Of a stretch of DNA of 64,000 bases, positions 435-64,000 are shown one piece after another; position 1 is the stretch's first letter, and every line of letters begins with the position of its first letter. Source of the stretch: a virus. Lineage: Duplodnaviria > Heunggongvirae > Uroviricota > Caudoviricetes. The position numbers and the translations under genes were made by a program. Location: IMG/VR virus record IMGVR_UViG_2690316068_000002; one strand, 5' to 3'. A model generated the notes under the pieces. That model was not told where the DNA came from, did not search any database, and saw only the letters and a list, made by a program, of their open reading frames with translations.

Positions 435-3400
435 TTAGTTACGTTGAGTGTTTGGGTTGAGTGATCCGCCAGGGCGTTTCTCTTGAGCGATAGTCTCAAG
501 CGCGATTGCTTTCATCCGTTGAGCGGCATTGTTCCATATGCTTTCTGTATCGCCGGATTCAGTTGTGCTACCGTCACTATGGACGTTGATCTCAATTGAT
601 ACCGGAGAAAGAACATTTCCTCCTCCACTCATACCATCGGTACTGAGCGTTACAGGGATTGTTCGACCATCAGGCAATGGAACATACGCCTCATTCATAT
701 CGCCTTCCCCAAACAACGCCAATTGAGGTGAGTTGGCGATACCGCCTTTCTGGTATGCCCGGAGCGGGATCACGCCGTCTTTTCCGAATATGCCACCATT
801 TGCAAACTTCGGAATTGCAGGAATACCATTCGTGCCATCGGCAGCAGAACTGGTCAGATTGTTGAACCCGGAAGTTGAGCCAGAAGAACCGGACATCAAT
901 CCATCGAATCCACCACCAGCCCATACTGAAACCAAACCAGATGCAACTGTCGCGCCGAAATTCAACCACTTATTACCAGAGCCGGAAGCATTAGCTCCAA
1001 GCATTGCAAACGCGGCAGACAGAGCGCCGGTAACAGAGCTGAGGTTCTGCATCGAGAAGATGGAGTCCTTCACTGCTTTTGTCTCAGCATCTTTGGCTTC
1101 GGTGCTATTAAATAGCCCTGATACCCAGCTACCAATCGCATTTGTTGCTGTGCCAATTGCGCTGGTGGTCTGCTGTGTCGTTTGCCCCAATCCAGTTACC
1201 GAACTGGACGTCTCCTTCGTGGCTTCTCCTACCGACTTGTCGCCATTAACAGTGTTGCTTATGCGCACACCTTGATTGGCAACTGCGGAAGCAACCCCGG
1301 TGAGCAAATTACCACTCTGTGAACTACCAGCTGCGGTGGTTCCCATCCCCAACATGTTCATTAGAGGCAGCGTGATCTGCGACTTCACGACCATATTGGT
1401 GATATCTTTCAAAATGGACTGAGATAGGCTGGAGAAGCTCATCTTCCCGTTAATAACGAAATCAGTCAGGACATCAGTTAAGCCACTAAACAAATCAGTC
1501 CAGGTGCTTTCGATCTGCTCTGCCAGATTTTCGTATTCCAGTGCCAACTTCTGCGTCGCAGTCCCCGTCTCTTTAATAAGCGCGGTATTGCCAGCAGCAA
1601 TCAGTTGATTGATTTTCTTTGTATAAAGCGCCACAACTTTAGGATCAGACGCCTTATCACGAAGTTCTATCAACGCTTTGAGATTGCGGTTGTAGGTGTC
1701 TTCGAAATCAGCAACTTTCTCTTCGCGAGACGGCGTATAGCCAGCACTAATAATGGAATCCGCCTCCGGTGCCCAAGTGGAGATCATCTGCTCAACATTG
1801 CGGCGATTAAACATCTCGCGATATTCAGGTGTCGCATTTTTGAGGTCTTCAAGACGTTTTTTCGCCTTGTCGATCATCTCTTGAGTGATGAACTCGTTAG
1901 GTACCGCATTAGCCAAATCTGTCAGCGATTTCGTTGTATCGCGAAGAGACTGATCAAACGATACCGTAGCCTTAGAGCTTTCACCCATTTGCCCCATAAG
2001 CTGATCAGCTTTGTCCAGAGCCTTCTGGTATCCGGCTGCCAGTTTCTGTTGCGCTGCCTGTTCCTTCTTGGCCGCACGCTGCGAGGCGTTAGCTGATCGT
2101 TGGGCTGCTTTCTCGGCAGCTGCTGCATCCTGTTCACGAGCTTTAGTAAGTGCGGCAATGGCTGCGGCACGCTCTTCATCGCTCATTTTCTCCAGAGAGC
2201 TGGCACTGGATGCTTTCTGCAAATTAAGCTGCGTCTTGAGTTGTTTAGGCCCAATAATCGGCTTACCTTCGAAGTCCATCATCGGAGTGCCGTCAGGCAA
2301 AGTACGCTGATAAGTCGCAGAATCCATCTGGTTTCGCATATATTGCGCCAACGCCTTCTGAGCAGCTTTATCAGTTGTACCTAACCCAAGAACAGTCCCC
2401 TGGTTTGACATTACGCCCTTACCAGTTTTGGCCGCGTTATCTCTCTCGAACTCTGCCTGAGTAAGTTCCTGAGCAACGGCTTCCAAATGCTCCTGATAAC
2501 CACGAATACTGCCTTGCAGTTTCTGGATTTGCTCGGTATTGCCATCCTTTTTGGCTTTTTCAAGCTGATCATTAAGAGTCGCGATTTGCTTCTCGGTCGC
2601 ATTCTTACGAGAAGAAAGTGAATCAACCAGTTTTTGCGCAGGCTCCAGATAGCTTTTGTTTACCGTTTCACGTAACGGTGCCAATAGCTTGTTCTTTTCG
2701 TCATCTGAAAGTGAACCGTCATCATTGATTTTCTGGATCTTATCCAGAGCCTCCTGCCGGGCTTTCACGAATGTTGCCGCGAAAATCTGGTTTTCCGCTC
2801 GAATTTTCTCAATCTGAGATTCGGCAGCCTCTTTAGCCAAACGCTTTGCTACAGCGCCGTCACCAAGAGCTATCGTGCCGGTTATCTTTTGATACTCTTC
2901 CTGATTTTTTTTCAGGCGTGCTTCGATGTCAGCCTTCGACTCTTTGTGAGTAATAACACCGGCAGAGTTAGATACGTAATTAACACCATCACCAGTTTTT
3001 AATGCTCGTTGATCAGCAAGAATCTGCTTTTCGAGCTTTTCTGCGCGGTCGGCCATTTGTGCACGTTTGGCCGCCGTCATCGCCTCTGGTATTTTCCTAA
3101 TCTCGTCAACGACCTTTGAAGTTTCGCTGCGGAGCATGGTCATGTACGTGATTAGGCCAGCAACAGCTACAGTGGCAACTGTAAATGCTGCCCCTATAGG
3201 GTTTGCTGCAATGAACGCCGTTAATCCAGCAAAAGCGCCTTTAAGCCCCGTAATCGCCCCACGGATGGCGAAAATAAGAGAGGGGATCGGAGCCAGCCCC
3301 ATACGTGCCGCACGATTGAATCGGGTTACTGCTGTAGCGCCGAGGTTAAATGGAGTCTGTATGGCGGTCGCCATCGTGGCAAAGGTGCTAACCATCTGGC

Positions 3401-5027
3401 TGCCTGCGCCAACTACCCCCATGATCCCTGCTCGCATCAGTTTGAACGCAACCATCGCGGCCACGACCTTACCGAGATTAATTACCAGCTCTTGGTTCTT
3501 TGCTAACCATTGAGCAAGCTGACGCAACCCATCGATTGCCGTCGTTAACCCCGAACCTAAAGAATTGGCAAACGAAATCCCTTCGGCGCTATTCATGATT
3601 GAAGCCAGTTCTTTCATCCCCTTCGATAGAGAATCCAGATATCCGGCCTGACCAACCCGATCAGCAAATAACGTGAATGACGTCTGAAGTTGCGCCAGCG
3701 CACCTGTGTAGGTTTGCATCATGTCTTTCGCTGCGTTCTCATTCTCCGCACGCAGACCAACAAACATCAGAGACAACGCCTGTTTTGCCTCAACCGTACC
3801 GCTGGCAACGGCTTTAGTCAGTTCCCCCATAGTGATGCCTGCGGCGTCTGCCATTGCCTGCATCGCGTTAGGAACGGCTTCACCTAATTGCTGACGTAGC
3901 TCTTCCATTGACACAACGCCCTTACCGGACATCTGCTGAACGGCCACAGCCGCACGTTTCAACAGCTCACTATCACCACCAAAACGAGCAACGGAGTCCA
4001 CCAGCGCCTTCAGAGAACCATCGGTTGGATCTAAGCCAGCAGAACGAAACTTCACGAAGGAGTCTGTTAACGCCTGCATCGCGAACGGCGCATTTTGAGC
4101 CATGTCTACGATGTACTTCATATCATCAGCGGCAGCCTGGCCCGGGTTGGACTTCTCCTTATTCAACCCTCGAAGCATCACCCGCATACGTTCCATTTCG
4201 GCCGCAGCTTCAACAATAGGCTTCTGCCACCCAAACATGATGTCAGTAACCGTTCTGGCTGCATCTCCGATCTCGCCAAGCAGAAAAATGTTGCCACGAA
4301 GGCCAGAGAACATACCTCCTTCGTTACTTTTACCGCTATGGCCAGAAGCGCCGCTACGCCGCCCGCTACCACCATCGCCACTTCCAGATGTACGAACGCG
4401 TACCGGCTTGCTAATCAGTTGCTGACGTCCGATAACTTCGTCCATCTGCTCACGAACCTTTTTCAGTCCCTCGGCAGCCTGACTCGTTGTGACACCCCAA
4501 TTACTGAGTCGCTTCGTCGTGGTATTAAGGCGCGTATTCATGCCACTCACGGACACAGAGGCTTCTTTGACCTCCGTACCAAAGCGGCTTGCGCTTTTGC
4601 TTGCATAGGTCGCCCAATCAGAGAAATCATTTAGCTCTGATTGCACTTTACGTAATGACGCGGTGAGTTTATCTACTGAAGAAGTTGTCGTATCGACGCG
4701 CTCAATCAGGGCTTTAAGACCAGAATTGAGGCTGGTGATGTTGCCACGCATTTTACGCGTAGCATCTGAAGCAAGCTCAAAACCGGCAGCTACATCCTGT
4801 AGTTTATCTGCCGTAGAATCGAGCTTGCTTTCCAGAACGCCAATGATACGGGCGACCGAACCCAAAGAGCGTTCAAAGGTTTGGATTTTTTGAGCAGGCT
4901 TTGTTACCTGCTCACCAAATCGAGTAAGCAGTTTCCCCGCACGATCGATTGACGCTGTAAACTGTTTGTCTTCCAGCGACAGGATAAACTCTACGTTTTG
5001 TGACATTCCCTTGTCATCCTCTGCCAA
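435..5027 (-). CDS. Tail tape measure protein
   Basis: 1530 aa; long coiled-coil-rich N-terminal half, hydrophobic Gly/Ala-rich membrane-like segment, Gly/Ser-rich C-terminus; sits between chaperone pair and gpM-like gene. Confidence 0.85.
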   Translation of the reverse strand: MAEDDKGMSQNVEFILSLEDKQFTASIDRAGKLLTRFGEQVTKPAQKIQTFERSLGSVARIIGVLESKLDSTADKLQDVAAGFELASDATRKMRGNITSLNSGLKALIERVDTTTSSVDKLTASLRKVQSELNDFSDWATYASKSASRFGTEVKEASVSVSGMNTRLNTTTKRLSNWGVTTSQAAEGLKKVREQMDEVIGRQQLISKPVRVRTSGSGDGGSGRRSGASGHSGKSNEGGMFSGLRGNIFLLGEIGDAARTVTDIMFGWQKPIVEAAAEMERMRVMLRGLNKEKSNPGQAAADDMKYIVDMAQNAPFAMQALTDSFVKFRSAGLDPTDGSLKALVDSVARFGGDSELLKRAAVAVQQMSGKGVVSMEELRQQLGEAVPNAMQAMADAAGITMGELTKAVASGTVEAKQALSLMFVGLRAENENAAKDMMQTYTGALAQLQTSFTLFADRVGQAGYLDSLSKGMKELASIMNSAEGISFANSLGSGLTTAIDGLRQLAQWLAKNQELVINLGKVVAAMVAFKLMRAGIMGVVGAGSQMVSTFATMATAIQTPFNLGATAVTRFNRAARMGLAPIPSLIFAIRGAITGLKGAFAGLTAFIAANPIGAAFTVATVAVAGLITYMTMLRSETSKVVDEIRKIPEAMTAAKRAQMADRAEKLEKQILADQRALKTGDGVNYVSNSAGVITHKESKADIEARLKKNQEEYQKITGTIALGDGAVAKRLAKEAAESQIEKIRAENQIFAATFVKARQEALDKIQKINDDGSLSDDEKNKLLAPLRETVNKSYLEPAQKLVDSLSSRKNATEKQIATLNDQLEKAKKDGNTEQIQKLQGSIRGYQEHLEAVAQELTQAEFERDNAAKTGKGVMSNQGTVLGLGTTDKAAQKALAQYMRNQMDSATYQRTLPDGTPMMDFEGKPIIGPKQLKTQLNLQKASSASSLEKMSDEERAAAIAALTKAREQDAAAAEKAAQRSANASQRAAKKEQAAQQKLAAGYQKALDKADQLMGQMGESSKATVSFDQSLRDTTKSLTDLANAVPNEFITQEMIDKAKKRLEDLKNATPEYREMFNRRNVEQMISTWAPEADSIISAGYTPSREEKVADFEDTYNRNLKALIELRDKASDPKVVALYTKKINQLIAAGNTALIKETGTATQKLALEYENLAEQIESTWTDLFSGLTDVLTDFVINGKMSFSSLSQSILKDITNMVVKSQITLPLMNMLGMGTTAAGSSQSGNLLTGVASAVANQGVRISNTVNGDKSVGEATKETSSSVTGLGQTTQQTTSAIGTATNAIGSWVSGLFNSTEAKDAETKAVKDSIFSMQNLSSVTGALSAAFAMLGANASGSGNKWLNFGATVASGLVSVWAGGGFDGLMSGSSGSTSGFNNLTSSAADGTNGIPAIPKFANGGIFGKDGVIPLRAYQKGGIANSPQLALFGEGDMNEAYVPLPDGRTIPVTLSTDGMSGGGNVLSPVSIEINVHSDGSTTESGDTESIWNNAAQRMKAIALETIAQEKRPGGSLNPNTQRN

Positions 5028-23999: not shown

Positions 24000-24019
24000 T
24001 TTTTTTAAGGAGCTTAATC

Positions 24020-24250
24020 ATGTTTGTTCTTATCGCTGACGTTAACGTCCACAATGAATATTATGTTAATCGCATCGCTGGGATCGCTGGTTACGCTGGG
24101 CGCGCAGTCGAGCTTATAGATGAAACGACGCGCAAAATTGACTTATTGAGCGACCAGGAGCGAAAAAAAGCAGACGTGAACGACGCTGATATTTTTTTAA
24201 TGTTAAAAGCGTTTGTAGAAATGGGATTTAAAATCAGTTTACACAAATAA
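24020..24250 (+). CDS. Hypothetical protein
   Basis: 76 aa ORF followed directly by a hairpin plus T-run. Confidence 0.45.
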   Translation: MFVLIADVNVHNEYYVNRIAGIAGYAGRAVELIDETTRKIDLLSDQERKKADVNDADIFLMLKAFVEMGFKISLHK

Positions 24251-24254
24251 AATC

Positions 24255-24280
24255 GAGCGCCCACTATGGGCGCTTTTTTC
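24255..24280 (+). terminator. Rho-independent terminator (hairpin + T-run)
   Basis: agcgccca-cta-tgggcgct followed by tttttt. Confidence 0.6.
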
Positions 24281-24699
24281 GTTTCCAATACTCCCACCAT
24301 AACGCGCCAATGATGGCGCGTTTTTATTGTCTTTAACTCACTCCAACAACATAAAAATAAGCGCCAAAATAACGCCATAGACGCGCTTTTACATCCTTAC
24401 CAGTACATACCCATTACTTAACACATTAACGCGCTTAAAACGCGTTATATTGCGTTATGGTGTATGGTTAATCATTGGCTTTTATTCTTGCTATGTGATC
24501 CGCGTTTATTTGTCGGTGCGGATCGGCATTTTGTTTTGTTCTGTATCCGCTCGCGTATTATGTGCGCGTGATTTTTCACATAATCACACCACTTAATCAC
24601 GTATGTGATTATGCTACGAAAGAAATCTGGATGTCTCAGGTGACGAAAGTCATCATAATTTTCCCCGCTCACCTGTCCGACAACCGCTGGTTGGATTCC

Positions 24700-30751: not shown

Positions 30752-30903
30752 TCCGAAACAATTTGTTTTCTTATGTGGCTTATTATCTCAATCAACAAAA
30801 GGTAGAAAACAAATTATTTTAGGGCTTGTGTAAATCAGGAGGGATTGTGTCTATATGAAAATGCCCAGCGTGTTGCCGGGCATTGTGAAGAATGGTTGTT
30901 TAG

Positions 30904-32937
30904 TTACTTAACTTGGTGGCCTGGTTTAGCACCAGCATCCGGGCTTAACAGGAAGATATCTTTTCCGCCAGGGCCAGCAGCCATCACCATGCCTTCAGAG
31001 ATACCGAAGCGCATTTTACGCGGAGCCAGGTTAGCCACCATAATTGTGTGACGACCAATCAGTGCCTGTGGGTCTGGATAAGCAGAACGGATGCCTGAGA
31101 AGACATTACGCTTTTCACCACCGAGATCCAGTGTCAGGCGCAACAGTTTGTCAGAACCTTCAACAAACTCCGCGTTTTCAATCAGCGCCACACGCAGGTC
31201 AACTTTGGCGAAGTCGTCAAAGGTGATGGTTTCCTGAATCGGGTCGTCAGCCAGTGGGCCAGTTACCGGTGCGGCTGTGGCTTTCACTTCTTCTTTGGAT
31301 GCTTCCACCAGTGCTTCCACCTGTTTCATATCGATACGGTTATACAGTGCCTTGAACGGATTCACTTTATGGCCCAGCAGCGGTTGCTGGATACCATCCC
31401 AGGTCAGTTCTGTATTCAGGAATGCTTCTGCACGTTCAGTCAGTTTCGGCAGTACCGGTTTCAGGTACGTCATCAGCACGCGGAACAGGTTAATGCCCAT
31501 AGAGCAAATCGCCTGCAGATCGGCATCGCGCCCTTCCTGCTTCGCCACCACCCACGGAGCCTGTTCATCGACATAGCGGTTAGCCAGGTCAGCCAATGCC
31601 ATGATTTCACGGATAGCTTTACCAAATTCGCGGCTTTCCCATGCTTCGCCAATCACTTCAGCGGCATCAGTAAAGGTTTTGTACAGTTGCGGGTCAGCCA
31701 GTTCGCTTGCCAGCACGCCGTCAAAACGCTTGTTGATAAAGCCTGCATTACGGGAGGCCAGGTTAACCACTTTGTTCACGATATCGGCATTCACGCGCTG
31801 AACGAAATCCTCCAGGTTGAGATCGATATCATCAATGCGCGAAGAGAGTTTCGCAGTGTAGTAGTAACGCAGGCTGTCGGCGTCAAAATGATTCAGCCAG
31901 GTGCTGGCTTTAATAAAGGTGCCGCGAGACTTGGACATCTTCGCGCCGTTCACCGTCACATAGCCATGAACAAACAGGTTGGTCGGCTTGCGGAAGTTGC
32001 TGCCTTCCAGCATGGCAGGCCAGAACAGGCTGTGGAAGTAAACAATATCTTTACCGATGAAGTGGTACAGCTCGGCGGTGGAGTCTTTCTTCCAGTATTC
32101 ATCGAAGCTGGTGGTATCGCCGCGCTTGTCGCACAGATTCTTGAAGGAACCCATGTAGCCAATCGGCGCGTCCAGCCAGACGTAGAAATATTTGCCCGGC
32201 GCGTTCGGAATTTCAAAACCGAAGTAAGGCGCATCTCGGGAGATATCCCACTGTTGCAGGCCGGATTCAAACCATTCCTGCATTTTGTTCGCCACCTGCT
32301 CCTGCAACGCGCCGCTGCGGGTCCATGCCTGCAACATTTCGCTGAAAGAAGGCAGATCAAAGAAGAAGTGTTCGGAATCACGCATTACCGGGGTAGCGCC
32401 AGAAACCACCGATTTCGGCTCGATCAATTCAGTCGGGCTATATGTTGCGCCGCAGACTTCACAGTTATCGCCGTATTGATCTGGCGCTTTACATTTCGGG
32501 CAGGTGCCTTTTACAAAACGATCCGGCAGGAACATGCCTTTTTCCGGGTCGTACAACTGAGAGATAGTGCGGTTTTTAATAAAACCGTTCTCTTTCAGGC
32601 GAGTATAGATAAGCTCAGACAACTGACGGTTCTCTTCGCTGTGCGTCGAGTGATAGTTGTCATAGCTGATGTTAAAGCCTGCGAAATCAGTCTGGTGTTC
32701 CTGACTCATTTCGCCAATCATCTGCTCCGGTGTGATACCAAGCTGCTGTGCTTTCAGCATGATCGGCGTACCGTGGGCATCGTCGGCACAGATGAAATTA
32801 ACCTCGTGGCCGCGCATTCGCTGGTAACGAACCCAGACATCAGCCTGGATGTGCTCCAGCATATGGCCGAGGTGGATTGAGCCGTTAGCGTACGGCAGCG
32901 CGCACGTCACCAGAATTTTCTTCGCGACTTGGGTCAT
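30904..32937 (-). CDS. metG: Methionyl-tRNA synthetase
   Basis: 677-aa product from [29 protein letters not shown] (HIGH motif), KMSKS motif, C-terminal tRNA-binding domain; near-identical to enterobacterial MetG from memory. ORF-track upstream extension (to 33066) rejected. Confidence 0.95.
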
Positions 32938-33094
32938 AGTAGGCATTACTTCTTTGTAGTGAAAAGGGGCTTGATAGTAACAAAATGGCCTTATGTCTGC
33001 CATGTGATAACAGCATTTCTCATAAATGATTAAATGTCGTAGCTGGAGTACACTACAAGGCGACAATTGCGCAAATTAAAATAAAGGAGACGGG

Positions 33095-34195
33095 ATGAGC
33101 GAGTCCAAATCGCCGGATGCCCTGAGAGCAATGGTAGCCGGTACGCTGGCTAATTTTCAGCACCCAACCCTGAAACACAACCTGACTACGCTTAAAGCGT
33201 TACACCATGTTGCGTTGATGGATGACACACTGCATGTCGAACTAATCATGCCTTTCGTGTGGAATAAGCCTTTTGAAGACCTGAAAGAGCAATGTAATGG
33301 TGATCTGCTCCGTATCACTGGCGCAAAGGCTATTGACTGGAAGCTGTCGTACAACATTGCCACGCTTAAGCGCGTCAAAAACCAACCAGGTATTAATGGC
33401 GTTAAGAACATTATCGCCGTCAGCTCAGGCAAGGGCGGCGTGGGTAAATCCTCCACGGCGGTAAACCTGGCACTGGCGTTGGCTGCTGAAGGTGCGAAAG
33501 TTGGTATTTTGGATGCCGATATCTATGGTCCATCAATTCCAACCATGCTGGGCGCGGAAAACCAACGTCCAACCTCACCTGACGGTACTCACATGGCACC
33601 TATCATGTCTCATGGCCTGGCAACCAACTCTATTGGTTATCTGGTCACCGACGACAATGCAATGGTGTGGCGTGGACCGATGGCCAGCAAGGCGCTGATG
33701 CAGATGTTGCAGGAAACTCTATGGCCTGATCTGGACTATCTCGTTCTCGATATGCCGCCGGGCACTGGTGATATTCAGTTGACGCTGGCGCAGAACATTC
33801 CTGTAACTGGTGCGGTTGTGGTAACTACGCCGCAAGACATCGCGCTGATCGATGCGAAGAAAGGCATTGTGATGTTCGAAAAAGTCGAAGTGCCGGTACT
33901 GGGTATCGTCGAAAACATGAGTGTGCATATTTGCAGTAACTGCGGTCATCACGAGCCAATTTTTGGCACCGGTGGCGCACAGAAACTGGCCGAGAAATAC
34001 AACACGCAGTTGTTAGGCCAAATGCCACTTCATATCTCTCTTCGTGAAGATCTGGATAACGGAACACCAACCGTTATTAGTCGTCCAGATAGCGAATTTA
34101 CGGCTATTTATCGTGACCTCGCAGATCGCGTTGCTGCCCAAATGTATTGGCAAGGTGAAGTAATACCTGGCGAAATCGCATTCCGCGCAGTGTGA
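33095..34195 (+). CDS. apbC: Fe-S cluster carrier ATPase ApbC/Mrp
   Basis: 366 aa; P-loop SSGKGGVGKSS, CxxC motif (CSNCGHH), divergent from metG as in enterobacterial chromosomes. Confidence 0.9.
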   Translation: MSESKSPDALRAMVAGTLANFQHPTLKHNLTTLKALHHVALMDDTLHVELIMPFVWNKPFEDLKEQCNGDLLRITGAKAIDWKLSYNIATLKRVKNQPGINGVKNIIAVSSGKGGVGKSSTAVNLALALAAEGAKVGILDADIYGPSIPTMLGAENQRPTSPDGTHMAPIMSHGLATNSIGYLVTDDNAMVWRGPMASKALMQMLQETLWPDLDYLVLDMPPGTGDIQLTLAQNIPVTGAVVVTTPQDIALIDAKKGIVMFEKVEVPVLGIVENMSVHICSNCGHHEPIFGTGGAQKLAEKYNTQLLGQMPLHISLREDLDNGTPTVISRPDSEFTAIYRDLADRVAAQMYWQGEVIPGEIAFRAV

Positions 34196-46428: not shown

Positions 46429-47022
46429 TTACTGCTTGTTGTAAACAAAACCAATATCTTTCTTGTGAGGCATATCTGCTGCGGAAAAAGCTGCGATCTT
46501 CGCGAGTCGATCACATATTTCATTTTCACGATGCCCGGCGTGACCTTTAACCCACTTCCAGCGAACATTATGTCGACTTGCAGCCTCATCCAGACGCTTC
46601 CACAGATCAACATTCTTTACCGGTTTTTTATCAGAAGTCATCCATCCATTACGTTTCCACCATTTCATCCACTGTGTCATGCCGTTTTTCAGATACTGGC
46701 TATCAGAGTACAAAATAACGTTGCATGGATATTTCAAACGCTCCAGCCCGATAAGTGCGCCCATCATCTCCATGCGGTTATTGGTGGTGCTATGAAAACC
46801 ATCTGAGAACTCGCGTTCCTCACCACGATACTGGAGAACGATACCGTAACCGCCCGGGCCACCCGGATTTTTAAGGCAAGAGCCATCACTAAAGATTTTC
46901 ACGGTTTTGAGCTGGGGATTGAACTCTACGACAGGCGTTGTGGGATTGGTGCGGGGAGATTTTTTGTTTTTGGCTTTTTTGCGAGTTTTTGCTTGCGATC
47001 GGGCTGGTGTCTTCGTCGTCAT
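46429..47022 (-). CDS. Ribonuclease H (RNase HI-like) with basic N-terminal extension
   Basis: Core IFSDGSC...GYG..L..R....S.TTNNRMEM...Y.DS.Y matches RNase HI active-site architecture; start placed at the Met preceded by GGAG. Confidence 0.75.
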
Positions 47023-47074
47023 ATAAACTCCTGAATCAAGCGCCGCGCCGATTTTTTCCTCGCGCGTGCGCACA

Positions 47075-49767: not shown

Positions 49768-50322
49768 TTACACAATTTCAGAGGGTAATTTAAAAAATCC
49801 GTACTTATTACGTGCCTTAAAGAAGCATTGCATCATTAAGTTTGTGTCATATAAGGCACTATGTGCTTTAGTATGATCGTACATAAAGCCAAGAGAGAAG
49901 GCCAACTCTTCAAGGCGGGGACGTTTACCGTCTTCTGTGGCCCACAGGGAAAATATAGTGTCAATCAATGGGATGTCTGGAAGCGAAAAACCGTAACTTT
50001 TCAGCTCATGCCTAATAAACGGAATATCGAACGCTTCGCCGTTGTGGGCTATCCAAATATCGGAAGAAGAGAGATACGAAGCGACAGATGAAGCGTGATC
50101 GGCTAGTAACGGCTCGGCGGCTAAATCTTCAAGACTGATGCCGTGTACCGCTTGCGCTTTCGGATCGATACTGCGACGCGGGTTGAACCGCATTACAAAA
50201 CTATCAACCATTGTCTGTGTCTCCAGTTCATAGCGGGTAATTGCGATTTCAATAATTTTATGACCAGCAAGGAAATCCAGTCCCGTAGACTCGATATCGA
50301 TGCCTGCAACAATCGTTGTCAT
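49768..50322 (-). CDS. DnaQ-like 3'-5' exonuclease (DEDDh family)
   Basis: 184 aa; Exo I GIDIESTGL, Exo II HNGEAFDIPF, Exo III HSALYD. Confidence 0.8.
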   Translation of the reverse strand: MTTIVAGIDIESTGLDFLAGHKIIEIAITRYELETQTMVDSFVMRFNPRRSIDPKAQAVHGISLEDLAAEPLLADHASSVASYLSSSDIWIAHNGEAFDIPFIRHELKSYGFSLPDIPLIDTIFSLWATEDGKRPRLEELAFSLGFMYDHTKAHSALYDTNLMMQCFFKARNKYGFFKLPSEIV

Positions 50323-55708: not shown

Positions 55709-55808
55709 GTGTTTTTCCTTTTTTGATGTGTTTAAACAAGTTGTTATCTTATGTGTTTAAACAAGGCTTACAAATCAAAGATAAGGTGGGGATATACCCC
55801 ACCATATG

Positions 55809-62741: not shown

Positions 62742-62967
62742 GTGTTTTTCCTTTGTGGTTATTTTGATACAGATATTAAGTGTGTTTGAGAGGCGAACAA
62801 TCCAGATAACACGGCCATTAAGAATGTTCACAGACACATGATTATGGCAAATTCATAGGTAAGTGAATACCTATTTTTATGGGCAGCAAAGATTTCTAGA
62901 TGTTACAAGCCACTCTATAATCGCAGTCACTTAATGATGACAACCAAACGAAAAAGGAGAACTGACG

Positions 62968-63471
62968 GTGAAACGCGTAATTATAGGGACGATGGCCATT
63001 GCTCTGATCGGATGCGTACCAAAACCACCTCAAGATGAAAAGTCAGCTGGCGGGTACGTTGATATTTACTCCACTTCAAGCGTAGCAATTGCCCAAGACA
63101 GAGCCGACAAATTGTGTGGAAGCCATGCCTATTATGTCTCTAACGACAATGATTTAACCAAAGTCATGGGTAGATACGCGCCTTCATTCCCAAAAATCAG
63201 GTTCAACTGTGATCTTGAAATGGCCGCTTATCTGGGCAGCAAAGAGGCAAAGGAGATCAAAATGAAACGCATAGAGGAAGCCTACAAGGAGATGTACAAG
63301 GCCCAATATGAGCTGAAAGAAGTGCGCCGTAAGAACGCTGATCCGAAGAAGCTGGAGTCTTACACAGAACGCGATCCGGACGGTACTATTCGCAGCTACA
63401 GCTTCTTGAATGGCAAGTCGTGCGAATCAATCGTGTACCCAGACGGCACGGGCAAAACGACTTGTGATTAA
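62968..63471 (+). CDS. Putative lipoprotein
   Basis: 167 aa; signal peptide with lipobox (LIGC); plus strand among minus-strand genes; followed by hairpin + T-run. Confidence 0.55.
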   Translation: MKRVIIGTMAIALIGCVPKPPQDEKSAGGYVDIYSTSSVAIAQDRADKLCGSHAYYVSNDNDLTKVMGRYAPSFPKIRFNCDLEMAAYLGSKEAKEIKMKRIEEAYKEMYKAQYELKEVRRKNADPKKLESYTERDPDGTIRSYSFLNGKSCESIVYPDGTGKTTCD

Positions 63472-63485
63472 TTCTTCAGGAGCAC

Positions 63486-63950
63486 CTCGTATGGGGTGCT
63501 TTTTATTTTGGGTCGCGAAACAGCATGTCGGCCATTTGCGAGGATTTGACGTAGCACTTTGCCATCATCGGCTGACTAGGGTTTGATGCGATCATGTCGG
63601 ACACCAGCATTGACCCATAGCCTTTTCCGCGAAGCTCTTTGACAATACTGACGGCACGGAGTTCAAGTCAAGGTGCGCCAGTCGGATCGAGTGCGGCACA
63701 GAACCAGATTAGTCCTACTTTTTGTCATCAGAACGATGCAGCAGGATGTAGATAAAATGCCCGGAGTATTGGCCCCGCTCGTTCGTCTTGATTGCCAGTC
63801 TGGTCTGCTGCTCAAAGGTTTTACCCCCCCTTTGATGTGAGGATCTCTTCGTAGAAGTGACCTTTGCGTGCGCCGTCCTCGAACTCAGCCATGATAAAAG
63901 GCATGTCTGTCACAGTTGCTGCCCTTGAATAAAATTCACTCATGTATTAA
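63486..63950 (-). pseudogene. Disrupted GNAT-family acetyltransferase gene
   Basis: Minus-strand reading gives MSEFYSRAATVTDMPFIMAEFEDGARKGHFYEEILTSKGG then frame changes; downstream frames encode ...LRGKGYGSMLVSDMIASN... (GNAT motif); a C7 homopolymer (63823-63829) sits at the first frame break. Confidence 0.45.
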
Positions 63951-64000
63951 TCCTAAAAGCCCTCAGTGTCTTTCTAATGCACCATATTTTATGCCTCGGT

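Follow-up and report, generated by a model that had tools for sequence, protein, structure and literature searches.

Evidence for a multi-hit GNAT acetyltransferase pseudogene with a length-variable G tract in an SSU5/pHCM2-type phage-plasmid lineage of Escherichia coli

The GNAT acetyltransferase gene on the minus strand of the window (63503-63943; the window is the whole 64,000-nucleotide stretch of IMG/VR record IMGVR_UViG_2690316068_000002 analysed here) is, with high confidence from comparison with its relatives, a non-functional, multi-hit remnant of a small accessory gene in an E. coli SSU5/pHCM2-type phage-plasmid lineage, in which four mutations would have become fixed after selection on the gene was lost. 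The initial annotation had placed three explanations of the broken gene side by side, namely a sequencing artefact, a true pseudogene and slipped-strand phase variation. The second is borne out by four lesions relative to intact orthologues, recurring in independent plasmids. In practical terms, an apparently switchable homopolymer on a phage-plasmid is here a by-product of gene decay, and the locus can be recorded as a pseudogene and no longer counts as a candidate for phase variation.

The extent of the remnant was established by orthologue identification, alignment and tblastn. It runs from an ATG at 63941-63943, preceded by AGGA, to the original TAA at 63503-63505, a narrower interval than the 63486-63950 first assigned to the gene, and its length is 441 bp compared with 495 bp in intact orthologues. 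Followed from 63943 down towards 63503, the minus strand reads MSEFYSRAATVTDMPFIMAEFEDGARKGHFYEEILTSKGG, then TAA right behind seven G. The pHCM2 protein matches this strand at 63515-63943 with E = 5e-61 (tblastn), upholding the earlier recognition of an acetyltransferase here, and the conceptually repaired translation has 92% identity to that protein across 143 aa, with the RGKGYG motif preserved. Identity to SSU5_071/WP_001288958.1-type genes is ~92% for both the DNA and the repaired protein. On Pfam PF00583 (Acetyltransf_1; curated cut-off 20.7 bits), the repaired translation scores 21.5 bits and intact orthologues 21.0 and 23.8 bits, each with a small margin over the cut-off, and the actual ORFs of the remnant (40 aa and 54 aa) stay under it. 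The acetyl-CoA-binding motif A (Q/R-x-x-G-x-G/A) is present as RGKGYG in the C-terminal fragment, beyond the reach of any ORF from the native start, and with two frameshifts, a nonsense codon and an 18-codon deletion the remnant has no complete GNAT domain in one uninterrupted ORF. The intact protein is assigned to phrog_15387, which PHROGs labels just 'acetyltransferase', and finds weak GNAT matches among solved structures (E > 0.3).

The surrounding DNA places the gene in a well-populated group of elements. The 701 bases at 63300-64000 are 91.8% identical to Salmonella phage SSU5 and have matches in 248 PLSDB plasmids (Enterobacter, Yersinia, Salmonella, Escherichia and Citrobacter); DNA identity is 91.8-92.4% to SSU5 and to ~160 plasmids in which the GNAT gene at this place is annotated as intact, the annotation in SSU5 and pHCM2 being a 164-aa GNAT family N-acetyltransferase (SSU5_071, YP_006906703.1; WP_001288958.1). 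Because of this match to SSU5 and the plasmids, together with the same GNAT annotation and the same neighbours, the window is part of an SSU5/pHCM2-type phage-plasmid, a group described in PMC7969092. One recent large phage-plasmid survey makes no mention of acetyltransferases, pseudogenes or homopolymers.

We aligned the window with the intact SSU5, pHCM2 and pZ1323CEC0004-2 alleles and with five near-identical E. coli plasmids. The comparison with intact orthologues, which the initial annotation had proposed, brings out four separate disabling lesions relative to about 30 intact copies, and all four can be read directly from the alignment. The gene is indeed broken at the C7 run, as had been noted, but the run is not the lone lesion: a change from A6 to A5, a TGA and a 54-bp deletion had been missed. 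The first lesion is a G7 homopolymer on the minus strand (C7 on the plus strand; 63824-63830, not 63823-63829 as first given), where intact alleles have G6 or GGGTGG. The resulting +1 frameshift brings a TAA (63821-63823) into frame at once and leaves a 40-aa ORF; the minus strand here reads AAG GGG GGG TAA, and the first frame break does sit on the run. The second lesion is an A5 tract (63719-63723, minus strand) that is A6 in intact alleles, a -1 frameshift that turns GACAAAAAAG into GACAAAAAG, with a TAG at 63715-63717 in the incoming frame. The third is a TGA nonsense codon at codon 92 (63668-63670, minus strand), where CCA CGA has become CCT TGA; CGA (Arg) is present in all intact alleles readable at the site. 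The fourth is the in-frame loss of 54 bp between two direct repeats of ATGCT, with its junction (63527/63526, within 63522-63531, minus strand) reading GGCCGACATGCTGTTTCGCGACCC. This deletion removes codons 140-157, MLKRRGFHLFDTSPKGTQ, including the conserved C-terminal "KRRGF" strand region, a stretch that corresponds to the conserved helix-strand element near the C-terminus of the GNAT fold. Because the +1 and -1 shifts cancel, homologous pieces are held in two frames, codons 1-40 and ~76-146 in one and codons 40-75 in the other; tblastn puts residues 1-40 and ~76-143 in a common frame, and the frames are two and not the three reported initially.

The same allele occurs in seven further E. 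coli plasmids (pE16EC0562-7, ESBL242, pRHB31-C19_2, pEc-JB2-4, pAMPD01, pLR-48_2 and pRHB23-C03_2). They were recovered on three continents, from human blood and faeces, from cattle, sheep and a giant panda, and from a rabbit farm; the eight copies as a whole trace to Korea, the UK, China, Ecuador and a laboratory strain. The occurrence of the lesions in independent plasmids is directly visible: every one of the eight E. coli copies has A5, TGA and the 54-bp deletion, and five of them have G7, namely the window and four other independent plasmid records whose 701-bp stretch is 99.7-100% identical to that of the window. Both marks by which a pseudogene is recognised, homology to an intact gene and lesions that recur in independent records, are thus present.

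These records also bear on the suggestion that the gene is truly intact and that its break comes from a wrong count of the homopolymer in this assembly. Sequencing errors are well known to occur at homopolymers, and the length of the tract does vary between related records, but other homopolymers are stable across the assemblies. In a control, 24-47 kb of the window's backbone was set against that of four sister plasmids, from which it differs by 1-2% in substitutions. Of the 46 comparable homopolymers of 6 bases or more, 43 were identical and 3 differed in length, these being mostly A/T runs with just one other G/C run of at least 6 (C6) comparable. All 11 comparable A/T runs of at least 7 were invariant across the same four sister plasmids. 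The assemblies are not generally noisy at homopolymers. A miscount in this assembly is very improbable when the same G7 stands in four other independent assemblies and the other three lesions stand in all seven sisters, and the pseudogene is real because the nonsense substitution and the 54-bp deletion cannot be homopolymer miscounts. Since the assemblies are not generally noisy at such sites, the differences between G7, G8 and G9 in the sister records probably reflect biological slippage rather than assembly error; for the G8 and G9 of three sister records, assembly errors peculiar to the G/C homopolymer are conceivable.

The C7 run cannot serve as an on/off switch, because it is just one of four disabling lesions. 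From the native ATG, simulated tract lengths of G4 to G12 give ORFs of 39-94 aa that never reach RGKGYG or the catalytic core, so that the lack of a restoring tract length is a matter of direct observation. The product is 75 aa at G6, 40 aa at G7, 93 aa at G8 and 76 aa at G9, and the 6- or 8-C tract once considered able to restore an uninterrupted ORF therefore does not do so. The same holds for the single-base indel that had been envisaged as restoring one full ORF: in simulation, the best indel anywhere yields 93 aa, and none reaches RGKGYG. Stepwise repair gives 75 aa for the G tract alone, 91 aa for the G and A tracts together and 146 aa once the TGA is repaired as well, and this triple-repaired product is still without 18 C-terminal residues.

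The cancelling of the +1 and -1 shifts, which returns the last segment to the original frame, is also what recoding would build on: a programmed ribosomal frameshift or slippage during transcription, at G7 and at A AAA AG, would then rebuild the full-length protein. Homopolymers can support polymerase slippage, but A5 is too short for efficient transcriptional slippage by E. coli RNA polymerase, the intact orthologues are plain single ORFs without a conserved frameshift, and the sisters with G8 and G9 would require different shifts. Neither a conserved shift nor a complete shifted product, as expected of programmed frameshifting, is found at the remnant. We regard recoding as extremely improbable and reject it, because, even with both shifts, a TGA stays in frame and 18 conserved residues are still missing.

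Within the 64-kb window, C7 is the sole G/C run of at least 7, and chance at this composition and length would give ~2.6 such runs of C and ~1.2 of G where one is seen. The run is unremarkable by itself, and its meaning comes only from the orthologue comparison. Across the eight copies (the window and the seven plasmids) the tract is G7 in five, G8 in two and G9 in one, while the 441-bp remnant differs by 0-2 substitutions within the broken clade, a pattern in keeping with slippage being much more frequent than substitution at a homopolymer of at least 7 G. Functional slipped-strand phase variation, in which tract length would toggle the acetyltransferase on and off, could draw on these lengths of 7, 8 and 9 among otherwise nearly identical remnants and on the position of the tract early in the coding sequence (codon 38-40), but it has no ON state, as the ORFs at G4 to G12 are at most 94 aa and end before RGKGYG; three more lesions downstream are fixed in all copies, and all 12 intact alleles with a G6 tract keep both G6 and the 164-aa ORF, with no switching seen. 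A functional switch is accordingly a most unlikely reading, refuted in that no tract length rebuilds the ORF. The phase variation first suggested survives in the weak sense of length differences of 7, 8 and 9, and fails as a functional switch. It is equally hard to credit that the tract is a live hypermutable site choosing among N-terminal peptides of 40, 93 and 76 aa, one of which would have acquired a function of its own. Tract-length variation is a consequence of decay and not a switch.

The substitutions offer some indication of when the gene decayed. The copy in the window shows ~22 synonymous and ~10.5 non-synonymous differences from intact alleles, and its dN/dS against them is 0.11-0.12, a low value that, for a broken allele, carries no information on current constraint. 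Pairs of intact alleles give 0.09-0.46, and because the dN/dS of the broken allele lies within this range, the inactivation is comparatively recent, with most of the 7-8% divergence having arisen before it under purifying selection. As the cause of decay we infer relaxed selection. Under this scenario, selection on the accessory acetyltransferase would have been lost in the E. coli phage-plasmid lineage, and the gene would then have accumulated a +1 slip in the G6 tract, a -1 slip in the A6 tract, a C to T change converting CGA to the nonsense codon TGA, and a 54-bp deletion mediated by the ATGCT microhomology. After the death of the gene, the lengthened G tract would drift neutrally by replication slippage to 7, 8 or 9. 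No intermediate allele of the sub-lineage of the window, whether intact or with only some of the lesions, was found in IMG/VR, in one genome per GTDB species or in JGI metagenomes. A residual role for the truncated peptide or the RNA of the remnant is formally conceivable.

A wider survey of the same three sources, with the invariant first 26 nt of the GNAT gene as query, returned 32 matches (12 IMG/VR contigs, 3 GTDB species genomes and 17 metagenome contigs), none of which belongs to the sub-lineage of the window. Among the 30 matches long enough to classify, 25 encode an intact 164-aa protein, including all G6 alleles without another lesion. The other five are broken in different ways: A5 in two and A7 in one, on a pHCM2-like haplotype, and an 84-bp internal deletion in two, common to a Buttiauxella gaviniae contig and an IMG/VR contig. 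The A5 and A7 changes lie in metagenome contigs and may each be a real change or an assembly error. To judge from these alleles, the GNAT gene seems to have been repeatedly lost or broken, with the A6 tract as a second weak point.

The remnant is part of a larger variable segment. Convergent to it lies an intact 167-aa gene (504 bp; 62968-63471, plus strand) with a full-length match to phrog_18989, and a hairpin followed by a T-run (63478-63503, plus strand), which resembles a terminator for the convergent gene, stands between the two gene ends. With the GNAT remnant, the 167-aa gene makes up a ~1.25-kb accessory cassette, located between a conserved 645-bp gene, itself next to the replication gene, and an SbcD-like metallophosphoesterase gene. 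The adjacent backbone has matches in 249 plasmids from complete E. coli genomes, and in ~211 of these it matches at 95% or more until similarity breaks off at ~62780; p09EL50 was the one examined, and there ~225 bp of unrelated sequence takes the place of the cassette (its 3276-3500 versus 62780-64000). The cassette is a dispensable, variable accessory module. For annotators of SSU5-type phage-plasmids, the slot for the GNAT and 167-aa genes is usually absent in E. coli, and the GNAT gene is broken where the slot is present. The 240-kb plasmid pEc-JB2-4 has, facing its GNAT remnant, a convergent gene annotated at just 216 bp, compared with 504 bp elsewhere, and an IS91-family transposase gene lies ~130 bp past the end of the shortened gene (2030-3575 of the segment compared). 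The shortened gene represents further decay of the same cassette.

Several other sites of the phage-plasmid also vary among its relatives. A tract at 47052-47057 (T6 on the plus strand, A6 on the minus strand) lies ~30 nt ahead of the probable start codon of rnhA (ATG 47019-47021, minus strand), in the leader or promoter region of the RNase HI gene and just past a GC-rich palindromic stretch. Its length differs in all five plasmids compared, being T6 in the window, T7 in pE16EC0562-7, T8 in pRHB23-C03_2, T9 in pLR-48_2 and T10 in pAMPD01. Annotated rnhA lengths vary as well (594, 645 and 651 bp), and pLR-48_2 is without an rnhA CDS in the PLSDB gene table. The rnhA-leader tract is a better candidate than the GNAT tract for tract-length-dependent expression. 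Elsewhere, ~30900-34100 holds the phage-plasmid's own pair of metG (methionyl-tRNA synthetase) and apbC, ~90% identical to the E. coli chromosomal copy; as a query it finds 222 plasmid places among complete E. coli genomes, with 216 records matching at 95% or more. The pair has the look of chromosome-type housekeeping genes that were acquired from a different enterobacterium and have been retained by SSU5-type plasmids. Indel-dense patches at ~24000-24330 and ~49950-50215 stand far above the 1-2% backbone divergence from the sister plasmids, and a 6-bp CTTTTT repeat-unit indel at 55718 is common to pLR-48_2 and pAMPD01; these patches and the indel probably mark recombination mosaicism among phage-plasmids.

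Among known systems, the nearest relative is the GNAT gene of SSU5 (SSU5_071) and pHCM2, which has the same position as the remnant, with the 645-bp gene upstream, the convergent 167-aa gene and the SbcD-like gene adjoining; unlike that gene, the remnant has +1 and -1 frameshifts, a nonsense codon and an 18-codon deletion and cannot encode the protein. Like the homopolymer contingency loci of Neisseria, Haemophilus and Campylobacter, it has a G/C homopolymer close to the 5' end of its coding sequence, polymorphic in length among close relatives. Such loci also have at least one repeat length that gives a full-length product, whereas in the remnant no tract length from G4 to G12 gives a complete frame and the other lesions are fixed. 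In multi-hit accessory pseudogenes of plasmids and prophages, by contrast, the same traits recur as in the remnant: several types of lesion shared by descent in one lineage, selection acting until recently, and independent loss or breakage of the gene in related elements. No difference from these pseudogenes was found, and the remnant is an ordinary pseudogene, a known kind of feature.
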